Assembly: GCA_038128225.1 (NCBI GenBank)
Contig: JAYPJF010000001.1
Span: 318,740 to 376,516, forward strand
Origin: a bacterium
Lineage (GTDB): Bacteria > Patescibacteriota > Minisyncoccia > Phycocordibacterales > UBA2100
Direction: 5' to 3'
Length of the DNA stretch: 57,777 nucleotides
Shown here: piece after piece, positions 673 through 55,133 of the stretch
How the letters are laid out: every line of letters begins with the position of its first letter
Position numbering within the stretch: position 1 is the stretch's first letter
Position numbers and translations under genes: made by a program
Notes under the pieces: generated by a model
What the model saw: the letters and a program-made list of their open reading frames with translations, nothing else
Told to the model about the DNA's origin: nothing
The model's database searches: none

Positions 673-695
673 CACTAGTCTGCTACAGTGGAATT

Positions 696-1790
696 ATGGA
701 ACATCAGAAAAAGCGCATACTAATTACCGGAGCCGCAGGATACGTTGGCGCGATGCTCTGTGAACACTTCGCTCGGCGAAGTGATGTTGAGTCTATTTTC
801 GGTCTTGATATTGCAGCACGGCCAGATATGCTCGCCGCGTACAAAAATATTATCTGGGAGCAGGCGAATACCGTCGATGACACATGGCAGAAGCGCGCGG
901 CTGATTTTGCACCACACGTGGTCGTGCATACCGCATGGCATATTCGCGACATGTACGGAAACACCGAACAACAGTGGCGGTGGAACGTCGAGGGTTCAAA
1001 AAAAGTGTTTGATTTTGCCTTTGCTGCCCACGTAGAGCGACTCATCCATTTTTCGACCGCGGCTATTTACGGAGCCTACGCATCAAACACCTGTGAGCAC
1101 CTCTTCACTGAAGAAGAACCAATGCGTGAAGCAGAATATCGATACGGGATCGAAAAGCGCGCCGTTGAGGACGCGCTTCGCGAAAAGGCAAATGGACACA
1201 CTGACGTTTCCGTTGCGGTCGTCCGTCCCGCGGCGATTACGGGACCGCGTGGGCGTTTTGCACGCATACGATTTGGTCTGCAGTCGGCGCTCTCGGGGCA
1301 ACTTCAGGGCAACATGTTGTATCGCGTTATCTCGCTTATGGTCTCGTATGTACCCGCAACGCCATGGTGGGTGCGTCAATTTGTACATGAGGATGATGTT
1401 GCAGATATCATCACGCGGTTGAGTTTTGGCCCACTCTCGTCCACATACGAAATTTTTAATCTCGCACCACCAGGGGAGCCCGTCTTTGCGCGTCACATGG
1501 CACGCGCAGTCGGAAAACGTGTTTTACCGATTATGCCATGGATGGTGCGCGTTGCTTACTTTGTTTTCTGGCATATGACACGCGGCAAGGTGCCTACGTC
1601 TCGCGGGGTTTGGCGTTTCTACTCATATCCGCTTTTGATGAACGGGAGTAAGGTGACACGCGAGCTTGGGTACACGTATCAATACAGTAGCCAGGACGCG
1701 TTTTATTATACCAATGGGCGTTATACAGGCGTTGTGCCTCAGGAACGGCTTCGAAATAAAGAGACAGCGCCTGCATTGCAAACAGCATAA
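696..1790 (+). CDS. NAD-dependent epimerase/dehydratase (extended SDR)
   Basis: ILITGAAGYVG Rossmann motif, STAAIYG, and a YGIEK (YxxxK) catalytic motif. Confidence 0.88.
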   Translation: MEHQKKRILITGAAGYVGAMLCEHFARRSDVESIFGLDIAARPDMLAAYKNIIWEQANTVDDTWQKRAADFAPHVVVHTAWHIRDMYGNTEQQWRWNVEGSKKVFDFAFAAHVERLIHFSTAAIYGAYASNTCEHLFTEEEPMREAEYRYGIEKRAVEDALREKANGHTDVSVAVVRPAAITGPRGRFARIRFGLQSALSGQLQGNMLYRVISLMVSYVPATPWWVRQFVHEDDVADIITRLSFGPLSSTYEIFNLAPPGEPVFARHMARAVGKRVLPIMPWMVRVAYFVFWHMTRGKVPTSRGVWRFYSYPLLMNGSKVTRELGYTYQYSSQDAFYYTNGRYTGVVPQERLRNKETAPALQTA

Positions 1791-1810
1791 GTTCTTCTAT
1801 ACTGCCTCGC

Positions 1811-3133
1811 ATGTGGACTCGGATATTTGCCGTGCTAATTCTTCTCTTGGGAGGCGCGTTTGGCTATGTGTTGCATACAACCGAAATTAACGGGACTCGG
1901 CCTTTTAAACTGGGTCTCGATCTTTCCGGGGGCACCCACCTTGTTTACAGCGCTGACGTTTCGCGTACGAACCCGAGTGATGTCCCGGATGCTATGGAAT
2001 CACTTCGTGACACGATCGAGCGGCGAGTCAATCTTTTTGGAGTCGCGGAACCTCTGGTGTATGTTGAACAGGCGAGTTTTGTCTCAGGAGTGCGCGATCA
2101 GCGGCTTGTTGTTGAACTTCCTGGAATCACCGATACTGAGGCTGCAATTCGCGCACTTGGGCAGACACCGGTTCTTGAATTTCGCTTACTTAAAGCAGAT
2201 GCTTCCCCTGCGGCGCAACCTACGACCACTGAAGCATTCAATCAGTTATTTGAACCTGCAGCGGTTACTGGCGCACAATTGAAACGTGCGACACTTCAGT
2301 TTGGTGGGCAACAGGGAGGATTCTCAAACGAACCGATCGTGGCGCTTGAATTTAATGCTGAAGGGGCCGCGCAGTTCGCAAAGCTTACAAGAGAAAACGT
2401 AGGGCGATCGTTCGGTATTTTTCTCGACGGAGTACCAATCTCTATCCCGGTCATTCGCGAAGCAATTCCAAACGGACAAGCTGTTATTTCCGGTGGATTT
2501 TCTCCAAACGAAGCAAAGGAGCTTGTGAGGAACCTTAACTTTGGCGCGCTCCCTCTTCCGATTTCTTTAGTCTCAACAAATACGGTAGGGGGCACACTCG
2601 GCGCGGCGGCAGTTGAGCGTGGTATTGCCGCGGGTGTATGGGGGTTGGTTGCGGTCTCTATTTTTATGCTTGTGTGGTATCGGTTGCCGGGAGTAGTTGC
2701 CGTTTTGGCGCTCGTGCTCTACACCGTGGCCATGCTTCTTCTTTTCAAGTTTATTCCTGTCACACTTACTGCGGCGGGCATCGCTGCATTTATTATTTCA
2801 ATTGGCATGGCGGTTGATGCAAATATTCTCATTTTTGAACGCATGCGCGAAGAATTCGCGGGAGGAAAAAGTACCCGGGAGGCAATTTCTGATGGTTTTG
2901 CGCGCGCGTGGCTTTCGATTCGTGATTCCAACATTTCAAGTATCATTACCGCCACCATACTGTTTTGGTTTGGCACCTCACTTGTGCAGGGGTTTGCGCT
3001 TGTGTTTGGGGTGGGGGTTCTGGTGTCGATGATCACGGCAATTTCGGTGAGCCGGACGTTGCTTCTGGCACTTGATATGGACCGTCGTCACGCGTTTGTC
3101 CGTGCATTTTTTGGCAGTGGCTTCACTTTGTAA
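1811..3133 (+). CDS. secD: Protein translocase subunit SecD
   Basis: KLGLDLSGGTHL, IERRVNLFGVAEP, IGMAVDANILIFERMREE, AWLSIRDSN, GFALVFGVG. Confidence 0.97.
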   Translation: MWTRIFAVLILLLGGAFGYVLHTTEINGTRPFKLGLDLSGGTHLVYSADVSRTNPSDVPDAMESLRDTIERRVNLFGVAEPLVYVEQASFVSGVRDQRLVVELPGITDTEAAIRALGQTPVLEFRLLKADASPAAQPTTTEAFNQLFEPAAVTGAQLKRATLQFGGQQGGFSNEPIVALEFNAEGAAQFAKLTRENVGRSFGIFLDGVPISIPVIREAIPNGQAVISGGFSPNEAKELVRNLNFGALPLPISLVSTNTVGGTLGAAAVERGIAAGVWGLVAVSIFMLVWYRLPGVVAVLALVLYTVAMLLLFKFIPVTLTAAGIAAFIISIGMAVDANILIFERMREEFAGGKSTREAISDGFARAWLSIRDSNISSIITATILFWFGTSLVQGFALVFGVGVLVSMITAISVSRTLLLALDMDRRHAFVRAFFGSGFTL

Positions 3134-4265: not shown

Positions 4266-5945
4266 TCTTTTGTTCCGTCCAAAAAACACAAAAAAGAAAT
4301 CGAAGTGTCTTTAGACACTTCTCATCTTAGCTAAGAGTTTGATCCTAGCTCAGGGTGAACGCTGGCGGTATGGATAAGGCATGCAAGTCGAGTGGGTTTA
4401 GACCCACGGCAGACGAGGTAGGAACACGTAGGAACGTACCCAGAAGTCGGGCATAATCGGTCGAAAGGCCGGATAATTCCCGATGGTCCCGCAAGGGTAA
4501 AGATTTATCGCTTCTGGAGCGGCCTGCGTAGCATCAGCTAGTTGGTAGGGTAATGGCCTACCAAGGCAATGACGCTTAGGGGAGCTGAGAGGCTGACCCC
4601 CACCGATGGAACTGAGATACGGTCCTTACTCCTACGGGAGGCCGCAGTCGAGAATCTTCCGCAATGGACGAAAGTCTGACGGAGCGATACCGCGTGATGG
4701 ATGAAGTGCTTCGGTACGTAAACATCTTTTATAGAGGAGGAAGTCATTGACGTTACTCTATGAATAAGGGGCTCCTAACTCTGTGCCAGCAGGAGCGGTA
4801 ATACAGAGGCCCCAAGCGTTACCCGGAATTACTGGGCGTAAAGGGTGTGTCGGCGGTCATATTAGTCGCTTGTTAAAGCCCGGGGCTTAACTCCGGAATC
4901 GCGGGCGAAACGGTATGACTCGAGGGCGCGAGAGGTGAATGGAACTCATGGTGTAGGGGTGAAATCCGTTGATATCATGGGGAACACCAAATGCGAAGGC
5001 AATTCACTGGCGCGTTTCTGACGCTCAAACACGAAAGCGTGGGTAGCGAACGGGATTAGATACCCCGGTAGTCCACGCCCTAAACAATCCTTGCTGGATT
5101 TGGGGAGTATCGACCCTCTCCGAGTCGAAGCTAACGCGTTAAGCAAGGCGCCTGGGTAGTACGGTCGCAAGACTAAAACTCAAAGGAATAGACGGGGGCT
5201 CGCACAAGCGGTGGAGCGCGTGGCTTAATTCGTAGGTAAGCGAAGAACCTTACCAGGACTAGAAATCCAGCTGCAGACCGATGAAAGTCGGGGGCCTTCG
5301 AGGGTGCTGGACAGGTGATGCATGGCTGTCGTCAGTTCGTGGTTTGAATTGTTCCCTTCAGTGGGGTAACGAACGCAACCCCTGTTGCCTGTTACAAGAG
5401 TCAGGCGAGACTGCCCCCTCACGGGGGAGGAAGGTGGGGATGACGCCAAGTCAGCATGTCCCTCTGACGTCCTGGGCTGCACGCGCGCTACAATCGCCGT
5501 TACAAAGGGGCGCTAAGGCGAAAGCCGGAGCAAATCCCAAAAAGCGGCGCCAATTCGGATTGAGGTCTGCAACTCGACCTCATGAAGCCGGAATCGCTAG
5601 TAATCGTGGGTCAGCACACCACGGTGAATACGTTCTCGAGCCTTGTACTCACCGCCCGTCAACTCAAGGGAGCCGGGAAGACCGGAAGATCTCGTCTATC
5701 GAGGTCCAGGGTAAGCTCGGTAACAGGGAGTAAGTCGTAACAAGGCACGGGTAGCGGAAGCTGCTCGTGGATTCATTCCAAAACGGAAACGTCCTACCGC
5801 ATTGCGGCTAGTGACGTACCGGTCGGTTTGTGTAGCTCAATTGACTACACAAGGGTGTCGTAGTGACCATAAACGCTACGTGACGCATGGGAAAGATCAT
5901 GTGACAGTCGGGAAAGACCGAAAGTGTTCTGGACGGAACAAAAGA
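4266..5945 (+). other. 16S precursor processing stem (leader/trailer helix)
   Basis: TCTTTTGTTCCGTCCA (4266-4281) is the exact reverse complement of TGGACGGAACAAAAGA (5930-5945). The helix extends via GTGCA/TGCAC (4260-4264/5949-5953). Confidence 0.85.
4327..5782 (+). rRNA. rrs: 16S ribosomal RNA (Parcubacteria-like; ends approximate)
   Basis: Conserved blocks AGAGTTTGATCCTAGCTCAG (4334), ACTCCTACGGGAGG, GTGCCAGCAGGAGCGGTAA, ATTAGATACCCCGGTAGTCC, AAACTCAAAGGAAT, AAGTCGTAACAAGG and helix 45 with a GGAA loop. No intron-sized insertion is evident. Confidence 0.98.
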
Positions 5946-9989: not shown

Positions 9990-10034
9990 CGAATACACGT
10001 GTTAATGTGCCAGCAAGCTGGTACAGTAGTGGGC

Positions 10035-11324
10035 ATGAATTACCGAATCCAAGGAGGTAAACCGCTTTCCGGTACCATTCAAACAAATACATCAAAAAAC
10101 GCTGCAGTAGCACTTTTGTGCGCATCGCTTCTTAATAAAGGGAAAACAATACTTGAGCGCATGCCCCGAATCGAGGAGGTGAATCGGTTAGTTGAAGTAC
10201 TTGAAAGCATCGGCGTTACTGTTACTCGTGAGGGGGGAACGATCACCATTAAGCCGCCTAAAACGCTCTCGCTTCAGACGATGGACAGGGAAGCGGCTGA
10301 AAAAACACGCTCGATTTCTTTGTTTGCGGGGGTGTTGAGTCACTGGGAAAAGGAATTCATGCTTCCTGTTGCCGGCGGGTGTCACTTGGGAGCGCGTTCA
10401 CTACAGGCGCATACTGATGCGCTCGGGGCGCTTGGGATAGAGATGAAAGGAACCGACGCGGGGTGGCATGTCCGTGCGTGGGACAAGCGCGCTGGAGAAA
10501 TAATCATGAGCGAAGCAAGTGATACTGGCGTTGAGAATGCACTGTTTGCCGCAGCGCTTTTACCCGGCACAACGACGATTCGTTTCGCGTCGTCAAATTA
10601 CATGGTGCAAGACGTGTGCGCGTTTCTTCAAAAACTCGGCGTTGCCGTTGAGGGCGCCGGTACAAGTACGCTTGCCGTGCACGGAGTTTCATCGATCGAT
10701 ACAGAAGTTACCTTCACTCCGAGCGAAGATCCAATCGAATCAATGTTTTTTGTCGCACTCGCTGCGACGACACGATCGCGCCTGACAATAACACAGTGCC
10801 CAATTGATTTTCTCGAACTAGAACTGCTTCATCTCAAAAAAATGGGACTCGCTGTTGGGCGAACAGAGGTGTATGTGCGTGATCGAGTGAGACTGGCAGA
10901 TCTCACCATTGAGCCGTCTGAATTGTTTGCTACACAAGAAAAAATCGCGCCGCTTCCGTATCCAGGCATCAATATAGATAATCTCCCTTTTTTCGTGCCG
11001 GTTGCAACACAAGCAAAAGGACGCACGCTTATTCACGACTGGGTGTATGAAAACCGCGCTATTTATTACACAGAAATAAACAAACTCGGCGCTGACGTTG
11101 TGCTTGCCGATCCTCACCGAGTATTTGTTACTGGACCAACACCACTTCACGCGGCGACGATAAAGGCGCCGCCGGCGCTTCGACCCGCAACCATGCTTTT
11201 AATCGGCATGCTTGCTGCACAAGGGGAGTCTGTTTTACAAGGCGTGTATCCGATAAATCGTGGCTATGAACAATTGCACGAACGATTAAACGCACTGGGA
11301 GCTCAGATTGAATCGTATGTCTAA
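10035..11324 (+). CDS. murA: UDP-N-acetylglucosamine 1-carboxyvinyltransferase
   Basis: SKNAA, GGCHLGAR (catalytic Cys retained), YPGINID, YENR, RGYE. Confidence 0.95.
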   Translation: MNYRIQGGKPLSGTIQTNTSKNAAVALLCASLLNKGKTILERMPRIEEVNRLVEVLESIGVTVTREGGTITIKPPKTLSLQTMDREAAEKTRSISLFAGVLSHWEKEFMLPVAGGCHLGARSLQAHTDALGALGIEMKGTDAGWHVRAWDKRAGEIIMSEASDTGVENALFAAALLPGTTTIRFASSNYMVQDVCAFLQKLGVAVEGAGTSTLAVHGVSSIDTEVTFTPSEDPIESMFFVALAATTRSRLTITQCPIDFLELELLHLKKMGLAVGRTEVYVRDRVRLADLTIEPSELFATQEKIAPLPYPGINIDNLPFFVPVATQAKGRTLIHDWVYENRAIYYTEINKLGADVVLADPHRVFVTGPTPLHAATIKAPPALRPATMLLIGMLAAQGESVLQGVYPINRGYEQLHERLNALGAQIESYV

Positions 11325-12012: not shown

Positions 12013-12031
12013 ACACGGTACACTGGTGGGC

Positions 12032-12226
12032 ATGACGAAGGACGTACTCATCATGCTCGCAGGTCTTCTAGTCGCATTCCTCCCATTCTTGGGTTTTCCT
12101 AATGCGTGGGATCAATGGATTTTATTAGGATTAGGCGTCGCCATCATTGCGCTCGGCGTTGCCGTGCGCCGCAGTAGGCGACGGGCGCCGCTTCAGGTGG
12201 CTACGCAGCATGAAGAAACACACTAA
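12032..12226 (+). CDS. Small two-helix membrane protein (hypothetical)
   Basis: Two hydrophobic segments (LPFLGFP...W) and a basic tail. TACACT -10 lies 7 nt before the ATG. Confidence 0.65.
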   Translation: MTKDVLIMLAGLLVAFLPFLGFPNAWDQWILLGLGVAIIALGVAVRRSRRRAPLQVATQHEETH

Positions 12227-13433: not shown

Positions 13434-13453
13434 CTTCGCGTTATACTACACGC

Positions 13454-15232
13454 ATGACGTGGTCGTATGACCCAGAAAAAATAACGTATTTTGCTGCAAC
13501 GCATACACGTGGGCAGCATCGCGCGTTTGGAATTCGTGCGAAAGATCGTACGAAGCATATGTATGTCATCGGAAAAACGGGTATGGGTAAATCAACCATG
13601 CTCGAAAATCTAGCGATTCAAGATATCCAAAACGGCGAAGGGGTATGCTTTATCGATCCGCACGGGTCGACTGCAGAAAAACTCCTTGATTTTATACCGC
13701 AAGAGCGCATCAAAGACGTGGTTTATTTTGCCCCGTTTGATACAGAGTACCCAATCGGTTTTAACGTGATGGAAGACGTGGGTTATGACAATCGGCACCT
13801 TGTGGTCTCAGGGCTCATGGGCGTGTTTGAGCGGTTGTGGGCAGATGCTTGGAGCGCGCGCATGTCATACATTTTACAGAACACATTGTATGCACTTTTG
13901 GAGTATCCCAACGCTACATTACTTGACGTGAATGCGATGCTCACCAATAAAACATTTCGCGAAGACGTGGTGAATCATATTACCGATCCAGTGGTTGAAC
14001 AGTTTTGGAAAGGAGAATTCGCAAGCTACACCGACCGCTACACGCAAGAAGCAACTCCTGCTATCCAAAACAAGATAGGGCAGCTGACCAACAACCCGCT
14101 TATTAGAAATATCCTTGGGCAGACCGAATCCTCGATCAACATCCGGGAAATGATGGATGCGCGGAAGATTTTTATTGTTAACCTTTCAAAAGGACGAATG
14201 GGAGAGAGTAATTCTGCACTTCTCGGCGCAATGCTCGTGGTGAAGATCTACTTGTCTGCGATGAGTCGAGCAAGCGAGACCGCCCAGCGGCAAGCGCAAC
14301 TCCCACCATTTTATTTTTACGTTGACGAATTCCAATCGGTGGTAAACGAAGCGTTCGCGAACATTCTCTCAGAGTCTCGAAAGTACAAGCTCGCATTAAT
14401 TGTGGCAAACCAATACATCACGCAGATGGATGAAACGGTACGCGACGCTGTTTTCGGCAACGTCGGCACGTTCATTGCGTTTCGCGTAGGCCCAATTGAT
14501 GCAGAATTTATTGAGGTTATGTTTAAGCCGACGTTTGAAGCGCAGGATTTAGTAAACCTTGGGTTGGGCGCCACATATCTTACGCTCATGATCGACGGCG
14601 TGGGGTCACAGCCATTTTCTGCACAAACACTCCCGCCGATTGAATCTCCTGGGACCACGTATCGCGACGACATTATCGAAGCGTCTCGTTCTCGGTACGC
14701 AAAACCTCGCAAAACAATTGAGGAGCATGTTAATGCACGAGTGCGTAAATGGCTTACTGCTGAAAAAGATGCGCACAAAGTACGCAGTTCGGCTGGTCAA
14801 AAGAATGGAAAACCCGGTGGAAACGGTACTCAAGGTTTTCGACCATCGTTCAGTAAGCCAGAGGTGACGCATGAGGCGCCCAAGCCTCAACCGGTACAAG
14901 CGCGCCCGCCTGTCCAAGAGCGACAAGAACGAGAAGTACCAGTACAGAGAAGGGAAGAGACGCCCCGCGAAGCACCTCGATCACCGATAGAAACACTTCG
15001 TGCGAAACAAACAGATCGACACGTACAACAGCCGCAGAAACCCGATGTGCGCAACGCGCTCAAGGATGCTATCCTTGCCGCGCAAAGAAACAAATCGGAA
15101 CAGAGGAATAATACTGTGCAACCAGAAAAGACGGAGCCGCATTCTTCCCAAGAAAAAAAACACAGCCCACCGACCAGTGACGCTGATGAAATAGACCCAA
15201 AAGAGTTGCGAAAACTCTTGTATGAAGAGTAA
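13454..15232 (+). CDS. VirD4/TraD/TrwB-like (DUF87/HerA-related) P-loop ATPase with low-complexity C-terminus
   Basis: Walker A GKTGMGKS, FIDPHG, Walker B YVDEFQ, LSESRKY, ANQYITQ, FGNVGT. Confidence 0.85.
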   Translation: MTWSYDPEKITYFAATHTRGQHRAFGIRAKDRTKHMYVIGKTGMGKSTMLENLAIQDIQNGEGVCFIDPHGSTAEKLLDFIPQERIKDVVYFAPFDTEYPIGFNVMEDVGYDNRHLVVSGLMGVFERLWADAWSARMSYILQNTLYALLEYPNATLLDVNAMLTNKTFREDVVNHITDPVVEQFWKGEFASYTDRYTQEATPAIQNKIGQLTNNPLIRNILGQTESSINIREMMDARKIFIVNLSKGRMGESNSALLGAMLVVKIYLSAMSRASETAQRQAQLPPFYFYVDEFQSVVNEAFANILSESRKYKLALIVANQYITQMDETVRDAVFGNVGTFIAFRVGPIDAEFIEVMFKPTFEAQDLVNLGLGATYLTLMIDGVGSQPFSAQTLPPIESPGTTYRDDIIEASRSRYAKPRKTIEEHVNARVRKWLTAEKDAHKVRSSAGQKNGKPGGNGTQGFRPSFSKPEVTHEAPKPQPVQARPPVQERQEREVPVQRREETPREAPRSPIETLRAKQTDRHVQQPQKPDVRNALKDAILAAQRNKSEQRNNTVQPEKTEPHSSQEKKHSPPTSDADEIDPKELRKLLYEE

Positions 15233-16676: not shown

Positions 16677-16694
16677 TTAATGTAGTGTTTTCTA

Positions 16695-19162: not shown

Positions 19163-19204
19163 GCGCCGCGTTGCTTCATGTAAACACTCTGTTAGAGTTT
19201 CATC

Positions 19205-21333: not shown

Positions 21334-21351
21334 AAGCGCTACAATGCACGA

Positions 21352-29554: not shown

Positions 29555-29580
29555 GGTTTTTTTGTGGTTTAATCACGGCC

Positions 29581-33394: not shown

Positions 33395-33401
33395 TGTTTC
33401 T

Positions 33402-43475: not shown

Positions 43476-43698
43476 GGCTATTAGTGCGAGGAGATTCATG
43501 ATCAACCCACATACTGTGTGACTTTTTTGCTGATATACGTGAGCGTATAACGTACAAGATCCCGAAAACGGGGATAAGGACCCAGTAGATGAGTGACAGT
43601 ACAATACGTGTGTTGAACCACCCCAAAACACCAATAAGGTACATGTAACTTTTGTATGCGTGGCGTCGCATATTGTGTAGCGTTTCCATACGCTGCAT
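43459..43698 (-). CDS. SxtJ-like membrane protein (short)
   Basis: GWFNTRIVLSLIY...P..G....R...S.W......QF pattern; immediately upstream of the carbamoyltransferase. Start is uncertain (43698 or 43728). Confidence 0.7.
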   Translation of the reverse strand: MQRMETLHNMRRHAYKSYMYLIGVLGWFNTRIVLSLIYWVLIPVFGILYVIRSRISAKKSHSMWVDHESPRTNSHELQF

Positions 43699-43709
43699 AA
43701 TTATTGCCC

Positions 43710-44918
43710 ATGGAGATGTCTGAGGCAATCAGGAGACGGGTCAGCGAGCGGAGTTACACAAAAGACCGTATGCCATTCGAAACACTCAAGGAACTCATCG
43801 CTGCTGCGCAAGAGGCTCCATCCGCATGTAATTTGCAGCTCACTGAATACGTGATCGTTGATGACCCAAAGCTTCTCGAAGTGTTTGCTAAAAAAGTAAG
43901 TGGTAAGTTCGCTTGGGCGTCTACGTATGTTTTTCTGGTGTACGATTCACGATTTACAATCAAGCGACATGCGGGTGTTGTGAGTCTAGGAGCGAGCGCT
44001 GAAAATCTTATGCTTGCGGCTACTGATCGCGGGCTCGCGACATGTCCAATGGCGGGGTTTGATCGTGATGACATTATAAAAAAAGCACTACAAATTCCCG
44101 ATCATTACCAGATAGGGCTCGCGATTGCGATTGGGTACGCTGCTACAGATTCTCACAAACAACGTATTCGCGTTCCAGCTCATACGGTAACGCATCACAA
44201 CATCTTCGTTGATCATCAGACGATGCGAGAAGACTGGAACATCCGTGCGTGGAGTATTCGTGAGATTATCTCGTATCGAGAACGTATCGCGCCCGTATAT
44301 TTGTATGGCGAGCGTGCCAACCTCCAGTCTTTTCCTCGTGTTGTATATACAGAAGCAGCGCGTATATGTGGCGAGGTGTGTGGAAAATATAACCCCGTAA
44401 AAATTCTCGATTTACACACATACGATGGCGCGTTTATTAGCGTCTTGAAAAACCTGTTTCCCACAGCGTTATATACATGCGCAGACTATACGCACTATGT
44501 GCGCGCGGTTATACAGCGGCAACATGCGCATGCGCAAACAGTGCAGATTTCAGAAACAGATGTCGTAGCGGTAGCGGACGCCACGCAAGATTTAGTGACG
44601 TTTGTGCACAAAGCATGGTTTGTTCCTCGTGTTGAAATTGTGTGCAAGGAGGCGTGTCGAGTACTCAAACCAGGCGGGCATTTTTTTCTTACACTGCCAC
44701 GAGAGACGTTTAAGGAACGCGCGTCTTTTTTTCTACGGCGCATATTTTTCTGGCGAGAAACGGGTAACGTCTATGAGAAAAACCCTTACTATAAGATTGG
44801 TCCCTGGCACTTTGTTTCTGCGAGACAATGCGCTATAGAAGCAACGCGTGCGGGGTTCTCACTATCTCTAGAAGGTTCGTTGTCGAGTGGGTCGTGGATG
44901 TTGTATGAGAAAAAGTGA
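43710..44918 (+). CDS. Nitroreductase-family domain fused to a methyltransferase-like domain
   Basis: RRVSERSY..EAPSACNLQ, IAIGY; C-terminal ILDL..YDG..CRVLKPGGHFFL. Confidence 0.78.
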   Translation: MEMSEAIRRRVSERSYTKDRMPFETLKELIAAAQEAPSACNLQLTEYVIVDDPKLLEVFAKKVSGKFAWASTYVFLVYDSRFTIKRHAGVVSLGASAENLMLAATDRGLATCPMAGFDRDDIIKKALQIPDHYQIGLAIAIGYAATDSHKQRIRVPAHTVTHHNIFVDHQTMREDWNIRAWSIREIISYRERIAPVYLYGERANLQSFPRVVYTEAARICGEVCGKYNPVKILDLHTYDGAFISVLKNLFPTALYTCADYTHYVRAVIQRQHAHAQTVQISETDVVAVADATQDLVTFVHKAWFVPRVEIVCKEACRVLKPGGHFFLTLPRETFKERASFFLRRIFFWRETGNVYEKNPYYKIGPWHFVSARQCAIEATRAGFSLSLEGSLSSGSWMLYEKK

Positions 44919-46176: not shown

Positions 46177-47438
46177 TCGGTACGTAATTTTAAGAAAAGG
46201 AACAGGACGAGCAGCGTATCAGCAATGGTTGCGATGAGCTGCGACATGACGGCGCCCCAAATTCCGAATTGTGGAAGAAGAATCAAGAGAAGGGTGATAG
46301 AAAACAGCGATGTAAATAACTCTGTAGAGTAGAGCTCGCGCTTTTTGAAATGAGCGAGAAATGTTTTTCTAAAAAGGGCAACGGGAGCAAACAGGAGTGT
46401 TGCAGCAAGTACCTGAGAGAAGCCAATAGCCTCGACATACTGAGGAAAAATATATTCGTAGAAAAATGGAGCAAGCACTACGTAAGTACCGACGCACGCA
46501 ATCAATGCCATGAGATACAAAATCGCTTTGCGGGGCAAGGTGCGTTTTAGTGTTTGGATGTCGGTAACGACGAGTTTGGGAAATATGAGTGTTCGAATGA
46601 TTTTCGTAAAGCCACGCATTTGTTTAACGGGGGCTTGTGCAAACACATACACTGCAAGCTGTGTCGCGCCCAGGTAGTGGAACACAAGCACTTTATCGAG
46701 CTGGTCGGCAATAAAACTCACGGAATTTAAGAGCGTCAGGTGCTTACTCTCGTGAATTAGCGGGATGTTCGGCACATCGTTGCTTTGAGTTTGGTAGTGA
46801 GCGCGAGTTCTTCGGTAAAGGAGAAGTACTGTCACAGTGTTGGCAAGATAAAATGCCAACACGATGAGTACCGGATTATTGCTGACATACATAGCGCAGA
46901 GAAGCAGGACAGTGGGAATGATATTGCGCGCAGCGCCATAGAGTGTGAGGCGGTCAAACGCCTTCCGTCCTTCGAGAAACGGAGCGTAAATTTCTGCAGC
47001 AGACAAAAACGGCAGAAGTGAAGCGACAACGAGAAGGGCGGTGGCGAGCGTGTTGTTCGCGTTTATAAAGTAGTAAGCTGCACCTGCAAGGGCTATGAGT
47101 ACCATGACTACGTTCCACCGAAGTCGCATAAGGAAACCAACGCGAAGTGCCTCATTTGACCCCAAGGCAGAGGCGCGTGATATGGCAACATTGATTCCGG
47201 TGAGGGAGAATGCGGATACAATACCTCCAAGAGAAAGGATAAATTGATAGGTACCAAATGTTTCTTTAGCTACAAGGTGTGCAAAACCTACCGATAGAAC
47301 AAAGCCTGCAGCCATGGAAATCAGTTGGCCGGCAAAAAGGTACGAGCCGCCGTGTGCCAAATACACCATATCTGTTTTTGTATATTTTTCGCTCCACCGC
47401 AAAAGCGCTTGCACGCGATTGCCCATCATTTTCAACAT
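46173..47438 (-). CDS. Wzx/MOP-family polysaccharide flippase
   Basis: About 12 TM segments; KTDM.YL..GG, FG.YQF.LS, DQLDK.L....LG...LA.Y. Confidence 0.88.
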   Translation of the reverse strand: MLKMMGNRVQALLRWSEKYTKTDMVYLAHGGSYLFAGQLISMAAGFVLSVGFAHLVAKETFGTYQFILSLGGIVSAFSLTGINVAISRASALGSNEALRVGFLMRLRWNVVMVLIALAGAAYYFINANNTLATALLVVASLLPFLSAAEIYAPFLEGRKAFDRLTLYGAARNIIPTVLLLCAMYVSNNPVLIVLAFYLANTVTVLLLYRRTRAHYQTQSNDVPNIPLIHESKHLTLLNSVSFIADQLDKVLVFHYLGATQLAVYVFAQAPVKQMRGFTKIIRTLIFPKLVVTDIQTLKRTLPRKAILYLMALIACVGTYVVLAPFFYEYIFPQYVEAIGFSQVLAATLLFAPVALFRKTFLAHFKKRELYSTELFTSLFSITLLLILLPQFGIWGAVMSQLIATIADTLLVLFLFLKLRTD

Positions 47439-47507
47439 GGAGTCAATACTATCCGCGAAATGAATTTTCCGCTAGCACTTCTTGAAATGCCTGCTATTCT
47501 TGAGCGC

Positions 47508-49703
47508 ATGTTAGAAAAAACGCTGCGCTGGATTGTTATCGGGGGCCTTTTTGCTATCCCGTTTATTCCACTTATTGTTGCTCATAATTTATTTTTTCCG
47601 TTTATCACAGGAAAGAATTTCACATTTCGTATACTTGTTGAAATTTGTATTGGCGCGTGGCTTGCACTCGCACTCGTGTATCCTGCATATCGACCGAAAC
47701 GATCATGGCTACTGGGGGTATTCGCACTTTTTGTTTTAATCATTGGACTTGCCGATTTGCTCGGCGCAAATCCAGGCAAGAGTTTTTGGAGTAACTATGA
47801 GCGTATGGAAGGGTGGGTGACATTAGTCCACTTACTTGGGTATGTAACCATACTCACGGTGTTTTTAAATACCACAAAACTCTGGTCGTGGTTCTGGCAC
47901 ACGTCGATTGGGGTTTCGGTTATCATGGGCCTATATGCGGTGCTCCAGCTCGTTGGGTTTATAACAATCAACCAAGGCGGAGTGCGTGTGGATGGGACAC
48001 TTGGGAATGCAACCTATCTTGGCGTCTACATGCTCTTCCATTTGTTTATTACCGCACTCATGTGGGAATATACGGTGCGTAAAAATGCTACTCGGCGCAT
48101 CGCCTATGGTTTTTTGTACGGTAGCATCATGATGCTGAACATCGTGGTGCTATTTTTTACTGCGACACGCGGTGCGATTCTCGGAGTAATCGGAGGCGCG
48201 CTTCTTGCCATGTTTTTACTTATGGTATTCGCTCGATCGTCGCCGACTCTCAGGCGTATAAGTGCGGGCATGATCGGAGCACTATTGATTTTGGTGGGCG
48301 TTTTTATTCTCATTAAAGACACTCAGTTTGTACAAGGTATTGAACCGATGCGTCGCCTTGCATCTATTTCACTTACCGAAACCACAGTCGCCTCACGTTT
48401 TCTCAACTGGAACATGGCGTGGCAAGGAGTCAAAGAACGACCACTTCTGGGATGGGGACAAGAAAACTACAATCTTGTGTTCAATAAATACTATGACCCA
48501 CGAATGTACGCGCAAGAGCCGTGGTTTGATCGCGTGCATAATATCGTTTTTGACTGGTTGGTTGCCGGGGGTGTTCTTGGTTTTCTATCATATGCAAGTT
48601 TGTTTGCGGTCGCGTTATGGCTATTGTGGAGAGCTGGTGATTTCACCGTATACGAAAAAAGTATTTTAACAGGGATGCTCGCGGGGTATCTATTTCATAA
48701 CCTTTTCGTGTTCGACAACATTACGAGCTACATACTATTTGCCTCTACGCTTGCCTACATCAGTGCACGAGCAAGCATAGGAAGGGACGAATCGCTTTTT
48801 CGAAACGGCGCACTGCCGCAGCAGGCACTTCCCGTTATTGTGGGTGTTGTTGTTATCGTAACGTGGGGTGCCGCGTGGGTAACAAACGCTTCTGCGCTAG
48901 GGGCAAACCGGACTCTCATTCAAGCACTGTCGCCGCAAGCTGATCTCACTAAAAATCTTGAACTCTTTAAACAGGCGCTTTCATATGAGTCGTACGGTAC
49001 GCAAGAAATACGAGAACAGTTGATCCAGGGAGTTGGTCGTATTGCGCCAGATCCTAATATCCCGCTAGAACTTAAGTCACAGTTTGCGCAGTTCACTGTC
49101 TCAGAAATGCAAAAACAAGTAGAGAGTACACCAAATGACGCTCGGTTCCCGTTGTTCTTGGGTGTGGTACTCAATGCGTATGGACAGTACGCGGATGCCG
49201 AACGATATCTGCAAAAAGCAAAAGAGTTGTCGCCAAAAAAACAGTCAATACTTTTTGAACTCGCCTCAAACGCACTCGCTCAAGAGCGCTTTGATGAGGC
49301 AGAAGCGTACACACGTGCAGCGCTCGATCTCGAGCCGTCTTTCCAGGAGGCGCGCGTGCTATACGCAACAGTGCTGGTTATAAAAGGTGACTTCACCAAG
49401 GCGACTGAAGTTATGGCATCGTTGATTAAAGAAGGCACGACTCCCGATCAGCGTCTCGTAAACGCATATGCAGAGAAGAAGCAATATCGCACAATCGCAA
49501 CTATGTGGGAATCCCGCGTTGCAAAACATCCTGAGGATGGGCAGGCATGGTTTGCACTCGCTGCTTCATATCACGCAGCGGGGGATGTGCGTGCTTCAAT
49601 TGCCACACTTGAGCGAGCTGCTGCGGCACACACTGAGCTTGCAGCACAGGCAAACATGTTTATCGAGCAAATTAAGAACGGAACGTTACCGACTCCTCGG
49701 TGA
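47508..49703 (+). CDS. O-antigen ligase/polymerase (Wzy_C)-like membrane protein with C-terminal TPRs
   Basis: GTLGNATYL, T.TRGA.LG, R...W..A.....ERP.LGWG.ENY, FDRVHN...D.L...G.LG; helical TPR tail. Start placed at MLEK because of the -10 position; 47460 is an alternative. Confidence 0.87.
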   Translation: MLEKTLRWIVIGGLFAIPFIPLIVAHNLFFPFITGKNFTFRILVEICIGAWLALALVYPAYRPKRSWLLGVFALFVLIIGLADLLGANPGKSFWSNYERMEGWVTLVHLLGYVTILTVFLNTTKLWSWFWHTSIGVSVIMGLYAVLQLVGFITINQGGVRVDGTLGNATYLGVYMLFHLFITALMWEYTVRKNATRRIAYGFLYGSIMMLNIVVLFFTATRGAILGVIGGALLAMFLLMVFARSSPTLRRISAGMIGALLILVGVFILIKDTQFVQGIEPMRRLASISLTETTVASRFLNWNMAWQGVKERPLLGWGQENYNLVFNKYYDPRMYAQEPWFDRVHNIVFDWLVAGGVLGFLSYASLFAVALWLLWRAGDFTVYEKSILTGMLAGYLFHNLFVFDNITSYILFASTLAYISARASIGRDESLFRNGALPQQALPVIVGVVVIVTWGAAWVTNASALGANRTLIQALSPQADLTKNLELFKQALSYESYGTQEIREQLIQGVGRIAPDPNIPLELKSQFAQFTVSEMQKQVESTPNDARFPLFLGVVLNAYGQYADAERYLQKAKELSPKKQSILFELASNALAQERFDEAEAYTRAALDLEPSFQEARVLYATVLVIKGDFTKATEVMASLIKEGTTPDQRLVNAYAEKKQYRTIATMWESRVAKHPEDGQAWFALAASYHAAGDVRASIATLERAAAAHTELAAQANMFIEQIKNGTLPTPR

Positions 49704-49968: not shown

Positions 49969-49999
49969 CACAAAACCCCCTTCGGGGGTTTTGTGTTTT
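49969..49999 (+). terminator. Intrinsic (probably bidirectional) terminator
   Basis: CACAAAACCCCC-TTC-GGGGGTTTTGTG followed by TTTT. Confidence 0.85.
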
Positions 50000-50062
50000 A
50001 TAAATCTACTGCAGCAAAATGAGCTGCGTGCCAACGTGAGTAAATGGTGCTAGTATGCCCGC

Positions 50063-52528
50063 ATGTTTAATTCGATCATGCGTGTATTTGGTGATGAAAA
50101 TGCACGAGCAGTGCGCCGGGCCGAACCGATTGTCGCAGCAGCAAACGCGCACGAAGAGGCGATCAAAGGCCTCTCGGACGAAGCGTTAAGACAAAAGACA
50201 TCTGAATTTAAAAAAAGACTGACTGAAGGTGAAGAGATAAATACGCTGGCACCAGAGGTATTTGCCACAGTACGAGAGGCGGCACGTCGCACGCTCGGCC
50301 AACGGCATTTTGACGTCCAGCTTATTGGCGGCATGGTTTTACATAATGGCGATATTGCAGAGATGCGTACTGGTGAAGGTAAAACACTTGTCGCAACGTT
50401 GCCAGCGTACCTCAACGCCTTACAGGGAGAAGGGGTTCATGTTGTGACGGTCAACGACTATCTTTCTCGGCGCGACGCTGTCTGGATGGGACAAATTTAT
50501 CATGCGCTTGGTCTTACGGTGGGAGTACTTAATCATCAAGCGGCGTTTTTATATGATCCCACACATCAAGAACAAGATAGCGAACGTGACGAGATCGGAG
50601 GTTTTCGTGTGCAACATGAGTTTTTGCGTCCTTGCTCAGCGAAAGAGGCATATGCTGCGGATATAACGTACGGTACCAACAGTGAATTTGGCTTTGATTA
50701 CCTACGTGATCAGCTTGAACACGATGCATCTCGATTGAGGCAACGCCCGCACGCGTATGCGATAGTCGACGAGATTGATTCCATTTTGATCGATGAGGCA
50801 CGTACGCCACTAATTATTTCAGCGCCTGTTGCAAACGCAGGGGAATTGTATGTCCGGTTTGCTACCATCGCGCGGTCGCTGGTGCGCGATGATGATTATA
50901 CGGTTGACGAGAAACATAAGCAGATCGCGCTTACCGACGAGGGAATCGCAAAGGCAGAGAAAGCTCTAGGACTTGAAAATATCTATACCGACGCGGGGGT
51001 TAAGTATGTGCACCACCTCGAAACTGCAGTCCGTGCGCAGGCATTATTTCAGCGGGACAAAGAATACGTAGTAAAAGACGGGGAGATCGTGATTGTTGAT
51101 GAGTTTACGGGACGATTGCAGCCGGGGAGACGTTGGAGCGAAGGGCTCCACCAGGCGATCGAAGCAAAAGAAGGGGTCGCAATTCAGCAAGAGTCTCGGA
51201 CTTTTGCGTCAATCACCTACCAAAACTATTTTAGACTATACAAAAAACTGTCTGGCATGACAGGCACGGCGGCAACCTCAGCCGAAGAGTTTTACCGCGT
51301 GTACGGTCTCAACACGGCAACGATCCCAACAAACAAGAAAGCGGCACGCATCGACCACGATGATCTCATCTTCCAAACAGAGAAAGGAAAATACAAAGCC
51401 ATTGTTGAAAAAGTGAAACAACTCCATGAGAAAGGGCAGCCGGTATTGGTCGGTACAGCTTCAGTGGAACGCAACGAGCTACTCTCCGCTTATTTTAAGC
51501 AGGCGGGCATTCCGCATGAGGTTCTCAATGCAAAAAATCATGAACGTGAAGGTGAGATCATCGCGCAAGCTGGCCGACGGGGCGCGGTAACAATCGCGAC
51601 AAACATGGCAGGGCGCGGAGTCGATATTAAGCTTGGTGGAAATCCCGCAACAGATGAAGAATATGCGGTAGTAAAAAAACTTGGGGGGCTCTATGTTTTG
51701 GGGACCGAGCGCCATGAGGCCCGTCGCATCGACAATCAATTGCGTGGTCGTGCGGGGCGACAAGGGGACCCAGGCGAGACGCAGTTTTTCGTTTCCCTTG
51801 AAGACTCGCTTATGCGGGTGTTTGCAAGTGATCTCGTAAAGCGGGTAATGGGTACGTTCGGCATTCCCGAAGATGAGCCGATCTACAATAGTATGATCAC
51901 GCGTTCGCTCGAGAGAGCTCAGACAAAAATCGAAGAATTCAACTTTGACGCACGGAAACATGTGCTAGCCTACGACGACGTGCTGAATGTACAGCGTGCA
52001 TCGGTATATGGACAACGTCGCGCACTTTTGACAGGAGACCGACTGGCGATAGAACAGGCTCTCGAAAAAATAACCCGTGCACATCCAGAACTTGCAACAG
52101 TCATCACCGAAAAGCGCACACAGTATGGCGACGAAGCTTTTTTTGATGCAGCGCGTCGCATTATGTTGCAGACTATTGATTTTCTTTGGGTGGACCATCT
52201 TGAGGCTATGGAGTACTTGCGCTCTAGTGTAAATTTGCGTGCGTATGGACAGCGCGACCCACTCGTTGAATACAAGAAAGAAGGGTTGCGCATGTTTCAG
52301 GTGATGGAGTCGTCATACCTCGAGCATGTTGCGCACATGTTGCCACAACTTACAAAGCGAGAGGAGCGTGCACTGCAAGACAAAGAAGTGGTGCCACAGG
52401 CGACAGATATCATGCAAGGGACGGGCCGCAATGAAAAAGTTCGTATCACAAATGGGGTAGAAGTAAAAGAAATGAAGTTCAAAAAGGCGGAACCACTGCT
52501 TAAAAGCGGTGGGTGGCGGCTCGCTTAA
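50063..52528 (+). CDS. secA: Protein translocase subunit SecA
   Basis: AEMRTGEGKT, VVTVNDYL, DEIDSILIDEARTPLIIS, GRRWSEGLHQAIEAKE, TIATNMAGRGVDI, RIDNQLRGRAGRQGDPG, YGQRDPLVEYK. Confidence 0.98.
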   Translation: MFNSIMRVFGDENARAVRRAEPIVAAANAHEEAIKGLSDEALRQKTSEFKKRLTEGEEINTLAPEVFATVREAARRTLGQRHFDVQLIGGMVLHNGDIAEMRTGEGKTLVATLPAYLNALQGEGVHVVTVNDYLSRRDAVWMGQIYHALGLTVGVLNHQAAFLYDPTHQEQDSERDEIGGFRVQHEFLRPCSAKEAYAADITYGTNSEFGFDYLRDQLEHDASRLRQRPHAYAIVDEIDSILIDEARTPLIISAPVANAGELYVRFATIARSLVRDDDYTVDEKHKQIALTDEGIAKAEKALGLENIYTDAGVKYVHHLETAVRAQALFQRDKEYVVKDGEIVIVDEFTGRLQPGRRWSEGLHQAIEAKEGVAIQQESRTFASITYQNYFRLYKKLSGMTGTAATSAEEFYRVYGLNTATIPTNKKAARIDHDDLIFQTEKGKYKAIVEKVKQLHEKGQPVLVGTASVERNELLSAYFKQAGIPHEVLNAKNHEREGEIIAQAGRRGAVTIATNMAGRGVDIKLGGNPATDEEYAVVKKLGGLYVLGTERHEARRIDNQLRGRAGRQGDPGETQFFVSLEDSLMRVFASDLVKRVMGTFGIPEDEPIYNSMITRSLERAQTKIEEFNFDARKHVLAYDDVLNVQRASVYGQRRALLTGDRLAIEQALEKITRAHPELATVITEKRTQYGDEAFFDAARRIMLQTIDFLWVDHLEAMEYLRSSVNLRAYGQRDPLVEYKKEGLRMFQVMESSYLEHVAHMLPQLTKREERALQDKEVVPQATDIMQGTGRNEKVRITNGVEVKEMKFKKAEPLLKSGGWRLA

Positions 52529-52790
52529 GTAGTCTAATGTGTGGAAAACTTTTTGGGCAACATAAGTTAGCAGGAATCATTAAAAAGCGGCATTCGCAAA
52601 AAGTTCCTATTTCTAATTGAATCTCGGCAAACCGAGGCAAGTACTTTATGGGAATCTCGGTGCTTTTCGCGCGCCCTTGGTGTAGTGTCCTTTACTCTAT
52701 TTTTTCTAGATTCGCTTTGAAGGAACCGGGAACTGTAGCAGTCTACGTACCCTCACTTGTTGGTTTTTCGATTGTGCGTACAATGCCGCT

Positions 52791-54233
52791 GTGGAGCTAA
52801 TTCCGACAATAGGACTCGAAATTCACGTTGAGCTGCGCACTAAGACAAAGATGTTTTGCGCATCCAAAAACGACCCGCATGCCTCAGCGCCAAACACAAA
52901 CGTGTGCCCTGTATGTATGGCGCATCCAGGAACGCTGCCCGCTATAAACAAGACCGCTGTCGCGCACGTTTTGCGCGTAGGAAAGGCTGTTGGTGGTACT
53001 CTTGCAAATTATACTGAATTCGATCGTAAGAACTATTTTTATCCAGATTTGCCAAAGGGATATCAGTTGAGCCAGTACGCACACCCTTTAGTTTCAGGCG
53101 GCACGCTTTTTGATGTTGGGATAACACGTATCCATCTCGAAGAGGACACAGCGCGCTCGGCGCATGATCCGAGTTCTGGGGTAACGCGCATTGATTATAA
53201 TCGAGCCGGGGTTCCGTTGATGGAATTGGTAACGGAACCGGAGATTCACACTGCAAAAGATGCCGTTAATTTTGCAAAAGAACTTCAAATTCTTTTGCGG
53301 ACACTTGGGGCAAGTGACGCGAATATGGAAAGAGGGGAAATGCGAATCGAAGCGAATGTTTCGCTTGGCGTAAGAGGAACACTTGGCACTAAGGTAGAAA
53401 TCAAAAATCTAAACTCATTTCGCTCTGTCGAGCGCGCGATTGAACATGAACTAAAGCGACAAAAACATTCTATAGAAAAGGGTTTAAAAGTTGAACAACA
53501 AACTTTGGGATGGGACGAGCATAAACAAAGTACGTTTCCACAACGTACAAAAGAGGGCTCGGCTGACTACCGGTACTTTCCTGACCCTGACCTTCCTAAA
53601 CTCGTCATTAGTGAGGTTACAGACTTTGATAACGGCAAACTACAGGCTGACACACCGGAATTACCTTGGGAGAAACGCGCAAGACTCGAGAAAATGGGTC
53701 TGAACTCTGAAGATGCATCGATGTATGTTGCTGATGAACGGCTTGGAAGTTTTTTTGATAGCGTGGCGCTAAATTTAAAAGGCGCAACGCCAGCGCTTGC
53801 AGCTAACTATATTTCAACCGATGTGGTCAAACTTATCCGAGACATCGAGGCGCGAGATTCGCTACTTCTTAAAAAAATACCCATTGCAGCGCACTCTTTT
53901 GCACAAGTGATTGATATGGTTCAGAATGCAGAACTCTCATCGAGAGGCGCAAAGACTCTGATTGCCGATTTATGTGTCTCGGATTTCGATCCAAAGGCCA
54001 AGGCAGTTGAATCTGGACTACTGCAACAGAGCGAAGACATCGCGCTCATACCCCTAGTTAAAGAGATCATCAATGCTCATCCTGGTGTTGCATCTGAATT
54101 TGTGGCAGGCAAGGAAAGTGCGCTGCAGTTTTTGGTTGGCCAAGCAATGAAAAAAACACGCGGCTCCGCAAACCCGCAAAAAGTCCATGCGCTTTTAAAA
54201 GAACAGCTTAGTAATCCACATATCGGGACTTAG
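52791..54233 (+). CDS. gatB: Asp-tRNA(Asn)/Glu-tRNA(Gln) amidotransferase subunit B
   Basis: IGLEIHVEL, FDRKNYFYPDLPKGYQ, IHLEED, DYNRAGVPLMELVTEP, EIKNLNSF, YRYFPDPDLP, GQAMKKTRG.ANP. Confidence 0.98.
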   Translation: MELIPTIGLEIHVELRTKTKMFCASKNDPHASAPNTNVCPVCMAHPGTLPAINKTAVAHVLRVGKAVGGTLANYTEFDRKNYFYPDLPKGYQLSQYAHPLVSGGTLFDVGITRIHLEEDTARSAHDPSSGVTRIDYNRAGVPLMELVTEPEIHTAKDAVNFAKELQILLRTLGASDANMERGEMRIEANVSLGVRGTLGTKVEIKNLNSFRSVERAIEHELKRQKHSIEKGLKVEQQTLGWDEHKQSTFPQRTKEGSADYRYFPDPDLPKLVISEVTDFDNGKLQADTPELPWEKRARLEKMGLNSEDASMYVADERLGSFFDSVALNLKGATPALAANYISTDVVKLIRDIEARDSLLLKKIPIAAHSFAQVIDMVQNAELSSRGAKTLIADLCVSDFDPKAKAVESGLLQQSEDIALIPLVKEIINAHPGVASEFVAGKESALQFLVGQAMKKTRGSANPQKVHALLKEQLSNPHIGT

Positions 54234-54263
54234 ACAATATTTTCTAGATATTATAATTCTCGG

Positions 54264-55133
54264 GTGGACCAGAAACTCACGTTTGATGGAATTGATTTCG
54301 TCTCTTCAAAAGAGGCGGCTTTGCTTACTGGCTATGCACAGGACTACATAGGACAGCTCGCGCGAGGGGGCAAAGTGCAGGCTCGTCGTGTCGGCGGCCT
54401 TTGGTACGTAAATCTAGAGTCACTAGGTTCCTACAAAGCGACTGCGGAAGCCTTTGTTCCAAAGCCACCTCGCTACGACTCCTTACAAGGAAGTTCTGAC
54501 GATTTCATCGGGATGGATGGAAAAAGAATGATCTCGTCTAAGCGAGGTTCGGAAATAAGCGGATACAATCAGGACTATGTCACTCAGCTTGCCAGGACAT
54601 CTCAAATTCACGCCCAGCAGGCAGGCTCTCGATGGTTTGTAGATCAGGCTGAGCTACTCGCGCACAAATCGCACAATGATGGCTTGTTGCGCGCCGTGCA
54701 GGCACAGTCCGTAGGCCTGGCTAAGTCAGAAACTACTGCGCAAAATAGTCATAGAGACTCGGAAAACGCACCGCTATATATCGCTGAAAAGCCTTTAGAA
54801 ATGCCTTTTTTTGAGAAAGCAACTTGGGTGGAACGTGACTTTGCTAATAAAAGCTCTGATGTCGCATTTGACACTGGAACGGAAGAGAAAAAGTCCTCAA
54901 AATCTTTTAAATCTGAACGAAAAAGTAGACTTCCGGTGCGCAGAGCTGGTTTTTTTCCAATGGTTTTAGCAACAACTATTGTTTTATTGCTTGTTAGCAC
55001 GCTTGCAACGGCAAGTTTTGGGGCATTTCGGCCGATTGGGCAGCAATACGCCGCTTCAAACAATGCAGTTTTCAAGAACGCCCTGCCTATACTCGATAGT
55101 TTTCTAGCAGAGCGCATTCATTTTGTCCGCTAA
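54264..55133 (+). CDS. Protein with two excisionase/MerR-like (HTH_17-type) DNA-binding domains and a C-terminal TM helix
   Basis: SSKEAA..TGY.QDYIGQLAR.G.V.A..VG..WYV occurs twice; hydrophobic FFPMVLATTIVLLLVSTLA. Confidence 0.8.
   Translation: MDQKLTFDGIDFVSSKEAALLTGYAQDYIGQLARGGKVQARRVGGLWYVNLESLGSYKATAEAFVPKPPRYDSLQGSSDDFIGMDGKRMISSKRGSEISGYNQDYVTQLARTSQIHAQQAGSRWFVDQAELLAHKSHNDGLLRAVQAQSVGLAKSETTAQNSHRDSENAPLYIAEKPLEMPFFEKATWVERDFANKSSDVAFDTGTEEKKSSKSFKSERKSRLPVRRAGFFPMVLATTIVLLLVSTLATASFGAFRPIGQQYAASNNAVFKNALPILDSFLAERIHFVR

Follow-up and report, generated by a model that had tools for sequence, protein, structure and literature searches.

How are ribosomes recruited to mRNAs in a bacterium whose 16S rRNA lacks the anti-Shine-Dalgarno (anti-SD) sequence? 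Bacteria of the candidate phyla radiation (CPR, or Patescibacteria) account for a large part of bacterial diversity, and their translation machinery is reduced. The question is raised here by a 57,777-nucleotide (58-kb) stretch of the tiny genome of one of them, called the window throughout, in which the 16S rRNA gene ends without CCUCC and hexamers of the form TAnnnT, the pattern of a promoter -10 box, end 6-7 nt before many of the start codons. These boxes are probably sigma70-type promoters that sit on the start codons themselves and give rise to leaderless mRNAs, with re-initiation at stop/start junctions as the complementary mode, in a genome without an anti-SD. Within this genome the analysis covered the window plus about 6 kb to its left, which were reached through exact-protein matches on short Logan contigs. 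The architecture was called pervasive in an earlier note on this DNA, a word that holds for these 58 kb and for the relatives described below; the same arrangement may extend genome-wide.

Boxes at the start codons

The earlier note had listed 13 pairs of a TAnnnT hexamer and a start codon, had ascribed an extended TGn motif to several of them and a Shine-Dalgarno (SD) motif to none. All 13 hexamers lie where it had placed them, 6-7 nt before the ATG or GTG of real genes, with a spacer of 6 nt in eight cases (starts at 696, 13454, 16695, 19205, 21352, 50063, 52791, and 54264) and of 7 nt in five (1811, 10035, 12032, 47438 on the minus strand, and 47508). The TGn extension is present at five of the 13 (696, 10035, 19205, 47508, and 50063), and GGAG, GAGG, and AGGA are absent from the 20 nt upstream of every one of these starts. 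The sites are as follows.

684..698, plus strand: -10 box tgcTACAGT (TGn), 6-nt spacer, ATG of an NAD-dependent epimerase gene
1798..1813, plus strand: -10 box TATACT (TTGCAA -35 at 16 nt), 7-nt spacer, ATG of secD
10022..10037, plus strand: -10 box tggTACAGT (TGn), 7-nt spacer, ATG of murA
12019..12034, plus strand: -10 box TACACT, 7-nt spacer, ATG of a 64-aa open reading frame (ORF) with two transmembrane helices, followed by a coupled DUF4015 gene (12210)
13442..13456, plus strand: -10 box TATACT, 6-nt spacer, ATG of a VirD4/TrwB-like ATPase gene
16683..16697, plus strand: -10 box TAGTGT, 6-nt spacer, ATG of an epimerase/dehydratase gene
19193..19207, plus strand: -10 box tgtTAGAGT (TGn, TTGCTT -35), 6-nt spacer, ATG of a GT4 glycosyltransferase gene
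21340..21354, plus strand: -10 box TACAAT, 6-nt spacer, ATG of a UDP-glucose/GDP-mannose dehydrogenase-like gene
47436..47451, minus strand: -10 box TAGTAT (47451-47446), 7-nt spacer, ATG (47438) of a polysaccharide flippase gene, divergent from the gene at 47508
47495..47510, plus strand: -10 box tgcTATTCT (TGn), 7-nt spacer, ATG of the gene for a Wzy/O-antigen-ligase-TPR protein
50051..50065, plus strand: -10 box tgcTAGTAT (TGn), 6-nt spacer, ATG of secA
52779..52793, plus strand: -10 box TACAAT (TTGTTG -35), 6-nt spacer, GTG of gatB
54252..54266, plus strand: -10 box TATAAT, 6-nt spacer, GTG of the gene for an HTH membrane protein

Four near-consensus sites that were absent from the earlier list can be added, and were counted as three to four cases.

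29568..29583, plus strand: tggTTTAAT, 7-nt spacer, ATG (29581) of a GT2 glycosyltransferase gene
33390..33404, plus strand: CATAAT (TTCGCA -35 at 18 nt), 6-nt spacer, ATG (33402) of the gene for a LAB_N-domain protein
43697..43712, plus strand: tgcCATAAT, 7-nt spacer, ATG (43710) of a nitroreductase-methyltransferase fusion gene
CACAGT, in the same register for a TTG at 43505, 6 nt before the curated ATG (43499) of a carbamoyltransferase gene

The ATG at 12032 opens the 64-aa ORF (12032-12226; the two helices are predicted) and not the DUF4015 gene, which starts at 12210 within the end of the small ORF, so that the boxed ORF overlaps the DUF4015 start by 17 nt.

TAnnnT occupies 1.16% of the positions in the window. 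A gene was taken as first when it does not abut an upstream gene, which divides the 44 curated genes (42 starting with ATG and two with GTG) into 24 first and 20 coupled genes. With the curated starts, a box at spacer 6-7 precedes 13 of the 24 first genes (binomial P ~1e-15 with the whole window as background, and P = 4e-13 with the richer background of upstream regions). Strict boxes are found for 54% of the units in the window, and for up to ~70% when near-consensus boxes are counted. A motif-blind test, in which the longest-ORF start was taken for each of 45 ORFs (90 aa or longer), gave seven boxes at spacer 6 and two at spacer 7, while the other offsets averaged 0.77 (P = 3e-5). The in-frame TAG that opens three of the spacer-6 hexamers slightly biases such an ORF-based test; when these hexamers are left out, 10 sites remain, and the in-frame offsets 3, 9, and 12 are flat.

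The position of the boxes depends on correct start codons, and several lines of evidence agree with the curated ones. Pfam domains begin at residues 2-8 in the epimerases, MurA, the NTP-transferase, and others, and the N-termini of MurA, SecA, and GatB coincide with those of their families, which for GatB was also seen in an alignment of relatives. Public gene calls on Logan contigs equal the curated starts in 17 of 20 genes between 11.3 and 32.3 kb, and for six out of 10 genes the exact product is present in the protein collection.

Promoter or ribosome signal

Boxes precede 13 of the 24 first genes and none of the 20 coupled genes (Fisher P = 5e-5). The extended -10 TG accompanies five of the 13 sites vs. 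4.7% of all TAnnnT occurrences (P = 2e-4), and a -35 TTG lies 16-18 nt upstream at five of the 13 vs. 6.6% (P = 1e-3). Within the box T1, A2, and T6 are invariant and A is favored at position 4, the same pattern that the -10 boxes of mapped leaderless promoters show. The enrichment of TGn and of the -35 TTG, together with the lack of a box before any coupled gene, argues that the hexamers are promoters and not ribosome sites.

The same register in relatives

The nearest SecF loci, with 57-67% identity and the same secDF-16S synteny, come from metagenome-assembled genomes titled Parcubacteria or Candidatus Paceibacterota/Paceibacteria, and on this basis the host belongs to the Parcubacteria/Paceibacterota (CPR). 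The adjacency of secDF and 16S is kept in five relatives (loci L001, L002, L007, L010, and L017). Motif-blind counting over 237 ORFs from 18 Paceibacterota SecF loci gave 23 boxes at spacer 6 vs. a mean of 5.1 (P = 7e-9). A reverse test, which runs from a TAnnnT or TGnTAnnnT motif forward to the next ORF-opening start codon, found an excess of spacer 6-7 in three sets, namely the window, the SecF loci (P = 4e-9), and those gatB loci that are closest (TGnTAnnnT, P = 2e-6); the gatB loci that use SD showed no such excess. Correspondingly, none of 91 genes in the SD-using control loci is boxed, vs. 19 of 135 and 21 of 110 in the relatives. These controls are gatB loci from outside the CPR, chosen because the five fetched loci that include a 16S 3' end all lack CCUCC.

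Single orthologous starts give the same picture. In 16 of 17 relatives the secD start has a -10 box (TATACT or TATAAT) 6-13 nt away, and in eleven of them the spacer is 6-8 nt. Most CPR-like relatives carry a -10-like box 5-10 nt upstream of the gatB start, where the loci from outside the CPR have AGGAG; in a close relative (L020) the sequence is tggTACAGT at spacer 6.

The 16S rRNA tail and Shine-Dalgarno use

The 3' tail of the 16S rRNA reads GGAUUCAUUCCAAA and contains no CCUCC.

5767..5782, plus strand: 16S rRNA 3' tail GUGGAUUCAUUCCAAA, with AUUCC in place of the CCUCC anti-SD core

In the Rfam alignment, the model's GAUcACCUCCUUu stands opposite GAUUCAUUCCAAA in this 16S rRNA, and the CCUCCU motif is absent. 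The 16S 3' end is present in five of the fetched loci, and the five tails all lack CCUCC and differ from one another, which is consistent with a tail freed from the anti-SD constraint.

Canonical SD 4-mers precede three of the 44 starts (background 7.6%), and only one of the 20 coupled genes; SD 5-mers precede one of the 44, csp at 7977 (background 2.6%). One SD 5-mer in 44 genes matches the chance expectation. The fit with an altered 16S tail that the earlier note had proposed is supported, with CCUCC gone and SD motifs at background level. A re-coded SD that would match the altered tail (of the GGAAUGA type) was considered and rejected, as none of the 44 starts has such a 5-mer and the duplex energies are weaker than random.

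The csp gene (7977-8531), which encodes two cold-shock domains, has AAAGGAG 9 nt before its ATG. The fetched loci yielded no homologue of csp in which the conservation of AGGAG could be tested. A further SD-like motif lies outside the window, ~4.2 kb to the left of its first position (L100:148-170), where GAGGAGG stands 5 nt before the ATG of a 106-aa ORF without a Pfam match; the genes neighboring this ORF again have boxes (TACACT, TAAATT, and TACAAT), with 6-8 nt between box and start.

Gene spacing and stop/start coupling

Spacing between genes on the same strand is bimodal. Twenty of the 44 genes start between -31 and +6 nt from the preceding stop, as 16 overlaps of 4-31 nt and four gaps of 1-6 nt. 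Eight of the overlaps have the form ATGA (17540, 23297, 24736, 25812, 28835, 30495, 35394, and 37595), of which one is given as an example.

17540..17543, plus strand: ATGA stop/start overlap

A box is found at 0/20 genes with gaps of up to 7 nt, and in the nine gaps of 18-45 nt there is a strict box at spacer 6-7 in eight and a variant in the ninth. Boxes are also present at the divergent pair 47438/47508 and at three genes behind long gaps (19205, 50063, and 52791). A forbidden class of gaps of 8-17 nt holds in the window; as a general rule it was dropped, since it fails in the relatives, where start calls are crude.

The exceptions to the box rule are csp, murD, the genes at 7350, 7519, and 55271, and the pair 39560/39595, with predicted leaders of 5-10 nt. 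At the last of these (39561-39594), a glycosyltransferase gene and an FkbM-type methyltransferase gene diverge across 34 nt that hold overlapping, near-palindromic -10 boxes (TATCAT/TATGAT) as well as an inverted repeat; leaders of 5 and 10 nt would result from these boxes, and no SD motif is present. The ATG of murD, at 8694, lies 1 nt past the end of a tRNA-Leu(CAG) gene (8610-8692), and once the tRNA has been processed at its 3' end, the murD mRNA would be leaderless or have a 1-nt leader, as in tRNA punctuation.

A proposed two-route mode of expression

These results fit an expression mode that can be described step by step. A putative -10 element with the consensus TA[C/T/G]AnT, in many cases extended by TG and accompanied by a weak TTG -35, ends 6-7 nt before the start codon, and with a box ending there the transcript should begin at the start codon. 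RNA polymerase would start on the A or G of ATG or GTG, or 1 nt before, and would produce a leaderless mRNA. As the ribosome has no anti-SD, translation in the window appears to start mainly by two SD-independent routes. The first would be initiation on a 5'-terminal start codon, for which 13 strict and three to four near-consensus boxes among the 24 independently started genes are candidates; the second would be re-initiation at start codons that overlap the preceding stop or lie next to it, which may apply to 20 of the 44 genes. We infer the transcription start sites, the 70S/leaderless pathway, and the re-initiation pathway from the sequence.

A bolder version, which we hold with somewhat more doubt than belief, is that the lineage may have dropped SD/anti-SD pairing altogether and may confine the start of translation to RNA ends and stop codons. 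If so, each cistron would either have the 5'-terminal AUG of its own transcript or be re-initiated at the previous stop, the 5'-terminal AUG being provided by a start-codon promoter or, at tRNA-Leu/murD, by tRNA 3' processing. Expression of this kind would be the bacterial equivalent of that in mitochondria and haloarchaea, with gene spacing dictated by translation (in the window, gaps of at most 7 nt, or of at least 18 nt with a -10 box), and the leftover SD-like motifs would be due to chance or be read by something other than the 16S tail.

Weighing the alternatives

Several observations weigh against leaderless initiation plus coupling as the main translation mode. The extent of DNA sampled within this genome is limited, strong SD-like motifs stand before csp in the window and before the 106-aa ORF just outside it, and about eight of the 24 first genes have no box and either have leaders of 5-30 nt or start directly behind a tRNA. 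For most boxed genes the gap to the gene in front is 18-26 nt, which leaves no room for a terminator, so that read-through transcripts with an internal AUG must also exist. A generic scan for two-hexamer consensus promoters gave no more sites than shuffled sequences and recovered only the secD and 33402 sites at start-codon spacing; its result points to weak -35 elements, such as other bacteria rich in leaderless mRNAs also have, and for this reason the scan was set aside as uninformative. Among the RNA runs searched, none was found that holds secA-gatB or csp mRNA, and four groundwater metatranscriptomes, picked up via 16S, contained only rRNA fragments of many organisms and no mRNA depth. 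At the DNA level, sequencing runs from estuary and wastewater samples contain 99-100% of the test stretch. Public callers also pick different starts for a few genes. The 64-aa ORF is started at 12053 (57 aa), the NTP-transferase at GTG 28790, 15 codons too early relative to the ATGA-overlap start that domain boundaries favor, and the polysaccharide deacetylase at 23372, 25 codons later than its domain-favored ATGA-overlap start (23297). Start discrepancies of this kind are typical of the usual trouble of gene callers in a genome without ribosome-binding sites.

Among the other explanations, the most probable one, although still unlikely, accepts the boxes as real promoters and makes the leaderless route a minor one, with long polycistronic transcripts on which 70S scanning and re-initiation cross the 18-26-nt gaps and internal promoters top up the distal genes. 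The gaps are indeed too short for terminators, 20 of the 44 genes clearly depend on coupling, and re-initiation across short gaps is known from studies of 70S scanning and of termination-reinitiation. However, the divergent 47438/47508 pair and the long-gap genes at 19205, 50063, and 52791 are boxed at exactly spacer 6-7 with no abutting gene upstream, and the exact 6-7 nt register, needless for a mere internal promoter, is modal in the window and in the relatives. A reading that we consider decidedly improbable has TAnnnT act on the RNA, as an AU-rich, non-SD ribosome-binding or Kozak-like signal in leadered mRNAs that are made from promoters further upstream, as in the Bacteroidota (group B of GeneMarkS-2). 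Another mRNA signal could have evolved in a genome without an anti-SD, and the location of most boxed genes 18-26 nt behind a gene makes read-through RNAs that contain the element likely. Group B motifs, however, precede all genes including internal ones (PMC6028130), as opposed to 0/20 coupled vs. 13/24 first genes here; the TGn and -35 TTG enrichments are features of promoters at the DNA level, the invariant positions are T1, A2, and T6, those of a -10 box, and the hexamers stand as far from the start codon as a -10 box does from the point where transcription begins.

That the pattern is an artifact of chance TAnnnT matches and misassigned starts has a negligible probability. The motif is loose (1.2% of positions), an in-frame TAG opens three spacer-6 boxes and is favored by ORF-based starts, and gene callers disagree on some starts, but the binomial P values of 1e-15 to 4e-13, the flat offset controls, the replication in independent relatives with absence from SD-using loci, and the support of the starts by Pfam boundaries and family N-termini led us to reject this reading. 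Leaderless initiation combined with stop/start overlap, as proposed in the earlier note, is therefore retained as the best account of the box geometry, its restriction to first genes, the promoter hallmarks, the 16S tail, the coupling, and the relatives.

Comparison with known systems

The closest parallel is group C of GeneMarkS-2, in which leaderless transcription is found in Actinobacteria (Mycobacterium tuberculosis, Streptomyces) and Deinococcus-Thermus (Lomsadze et al., 2018; PMC6028130). Transcription start maps of leaderless genomes are among the works cited there (Cortes et al., 2013; de Groot et al., 2014), and mapped leaderless promoters of the group have TANNNT 6-8 nt from the start of first-in-operon genes (PMC6028130). 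The window shares with this group the TANNNT Pribnow box before first-gene starts, in exactly the geometry of group C promoters, the ATG/GTG starts, and the weak -35, and its strict share of 54% can be set beside a leaderless share of 25-50% in group C. It differs in that group C has a canonical anti-SD and SD sites for internal and leadered genes, whereas here the anti-SD is gone, SD is at background, and internal genes appear to use stop/start overlap instead. Group C genomes that use code 11 are nearly all high in GC (bioRxiv 10.1101/2022.07.25.500264), in contrast to ~49% for the window and ~50% for this genome, and start sites have been mapped in group C, whereas those proposed here are predicted from the DNA sequence.

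On the side of the ribosome, the passages of Tsurumaki et al. (Tsurumaki, Saito, Tomita & Kanai, 2022, RNA 28:1041; PMC9297842) report that the anti-SD has been lost in about half of the Parcubacteria, where SD helices probably do not form, that the rRNA loss overlaps with the loss of uL1 in Parcubacteria, and that in CPR bS21 is often absent and bS1 short. The 16S 3' end without CCUCCU is shared, as is the lineage, Parcubacteria/Paceibacterota. Those passages are silent on translation start, to which the box and the coupling described here would add the complementary mRNA side.

The overlaps resemble termination-reinitiation at ATGA and TAATG junctions in bacteria and archaea, with 20 of 44 genes here starting -31 to +6 nt from a stop and eight of them at ATGA. 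In most bacteria, however, an SD inside the upstream gene helps the coupling, and none is detectable here. Leaderless translation is also found in mitochondria and haloarchaea, and mitochondrial mRNAs can lie directly behind tRNAs, to which the tRNA-Leu/murD arrangement may be compared. The Bacteroidota (group B) are alike in having genes without SD motifs; they differ in keeping the anti-SD in the rRNA and in having an A-rich motif before all genes, whereas the -10 box here stands only before non-coupled genes.

In the literature, no paper was found that links leaderless mRNAs to CPR, Patescibacteria, or Parcubacteria, and none on how the mRNAs of Parcubacteria without an anti-SD recruit ribosomes. 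The mode described is a known one, here in a group for which no description was found; it is that of a leaderless-type genome minus its SD half. The window and its relatives offer a concrete and testable answer to the question of ribosome recruitment, namely start-codon promoters plus stop/start coupling. On this answer, gene callers that assume a ribosome-binding site will misplace starts in these genomes, operon prediction by intergenic distance will go wrong, since genes 18-26 nt apart would have promoters of their own, and ribosome-binding sites will have to be supplied when CPR genes are expressed in other hosts.

Further features of the window

Pfam annotation of the window includes secD/secF, murD, murA, rsmI, secA, and gatB, as well as a long array of genes for glycosyltransferases, methyltransferases, and polysaccharides. 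Rfam found a bacterial 16S rRNA (4327-5782) and two tRNAs in the window, of which tRNA-Ile follows the 16S gene (window 4327-6550); no 23S rRNA was found by Rfam in the 58 kb, and the rRNA genes are accordingly unlinked.

At 7401-7463, a terminator-like hairpin with a T-run comes 18 nt after the best promoter match of the window (TTGCAA, 16 nt, TG-TATAAT). The match lies in the gap between the divergent methyltransferase and DUF5698 genes, and may belong to a small RNA or a regulatory leader. Just upstream of secA (49880-49960) there is a lysine-rich micro-ORF of ~24 codons (MAKKKKAAKKAKK...) followed by a GC-rich hairpin, while an ORF of 79 aa at 49814-50053 was judged spurious.

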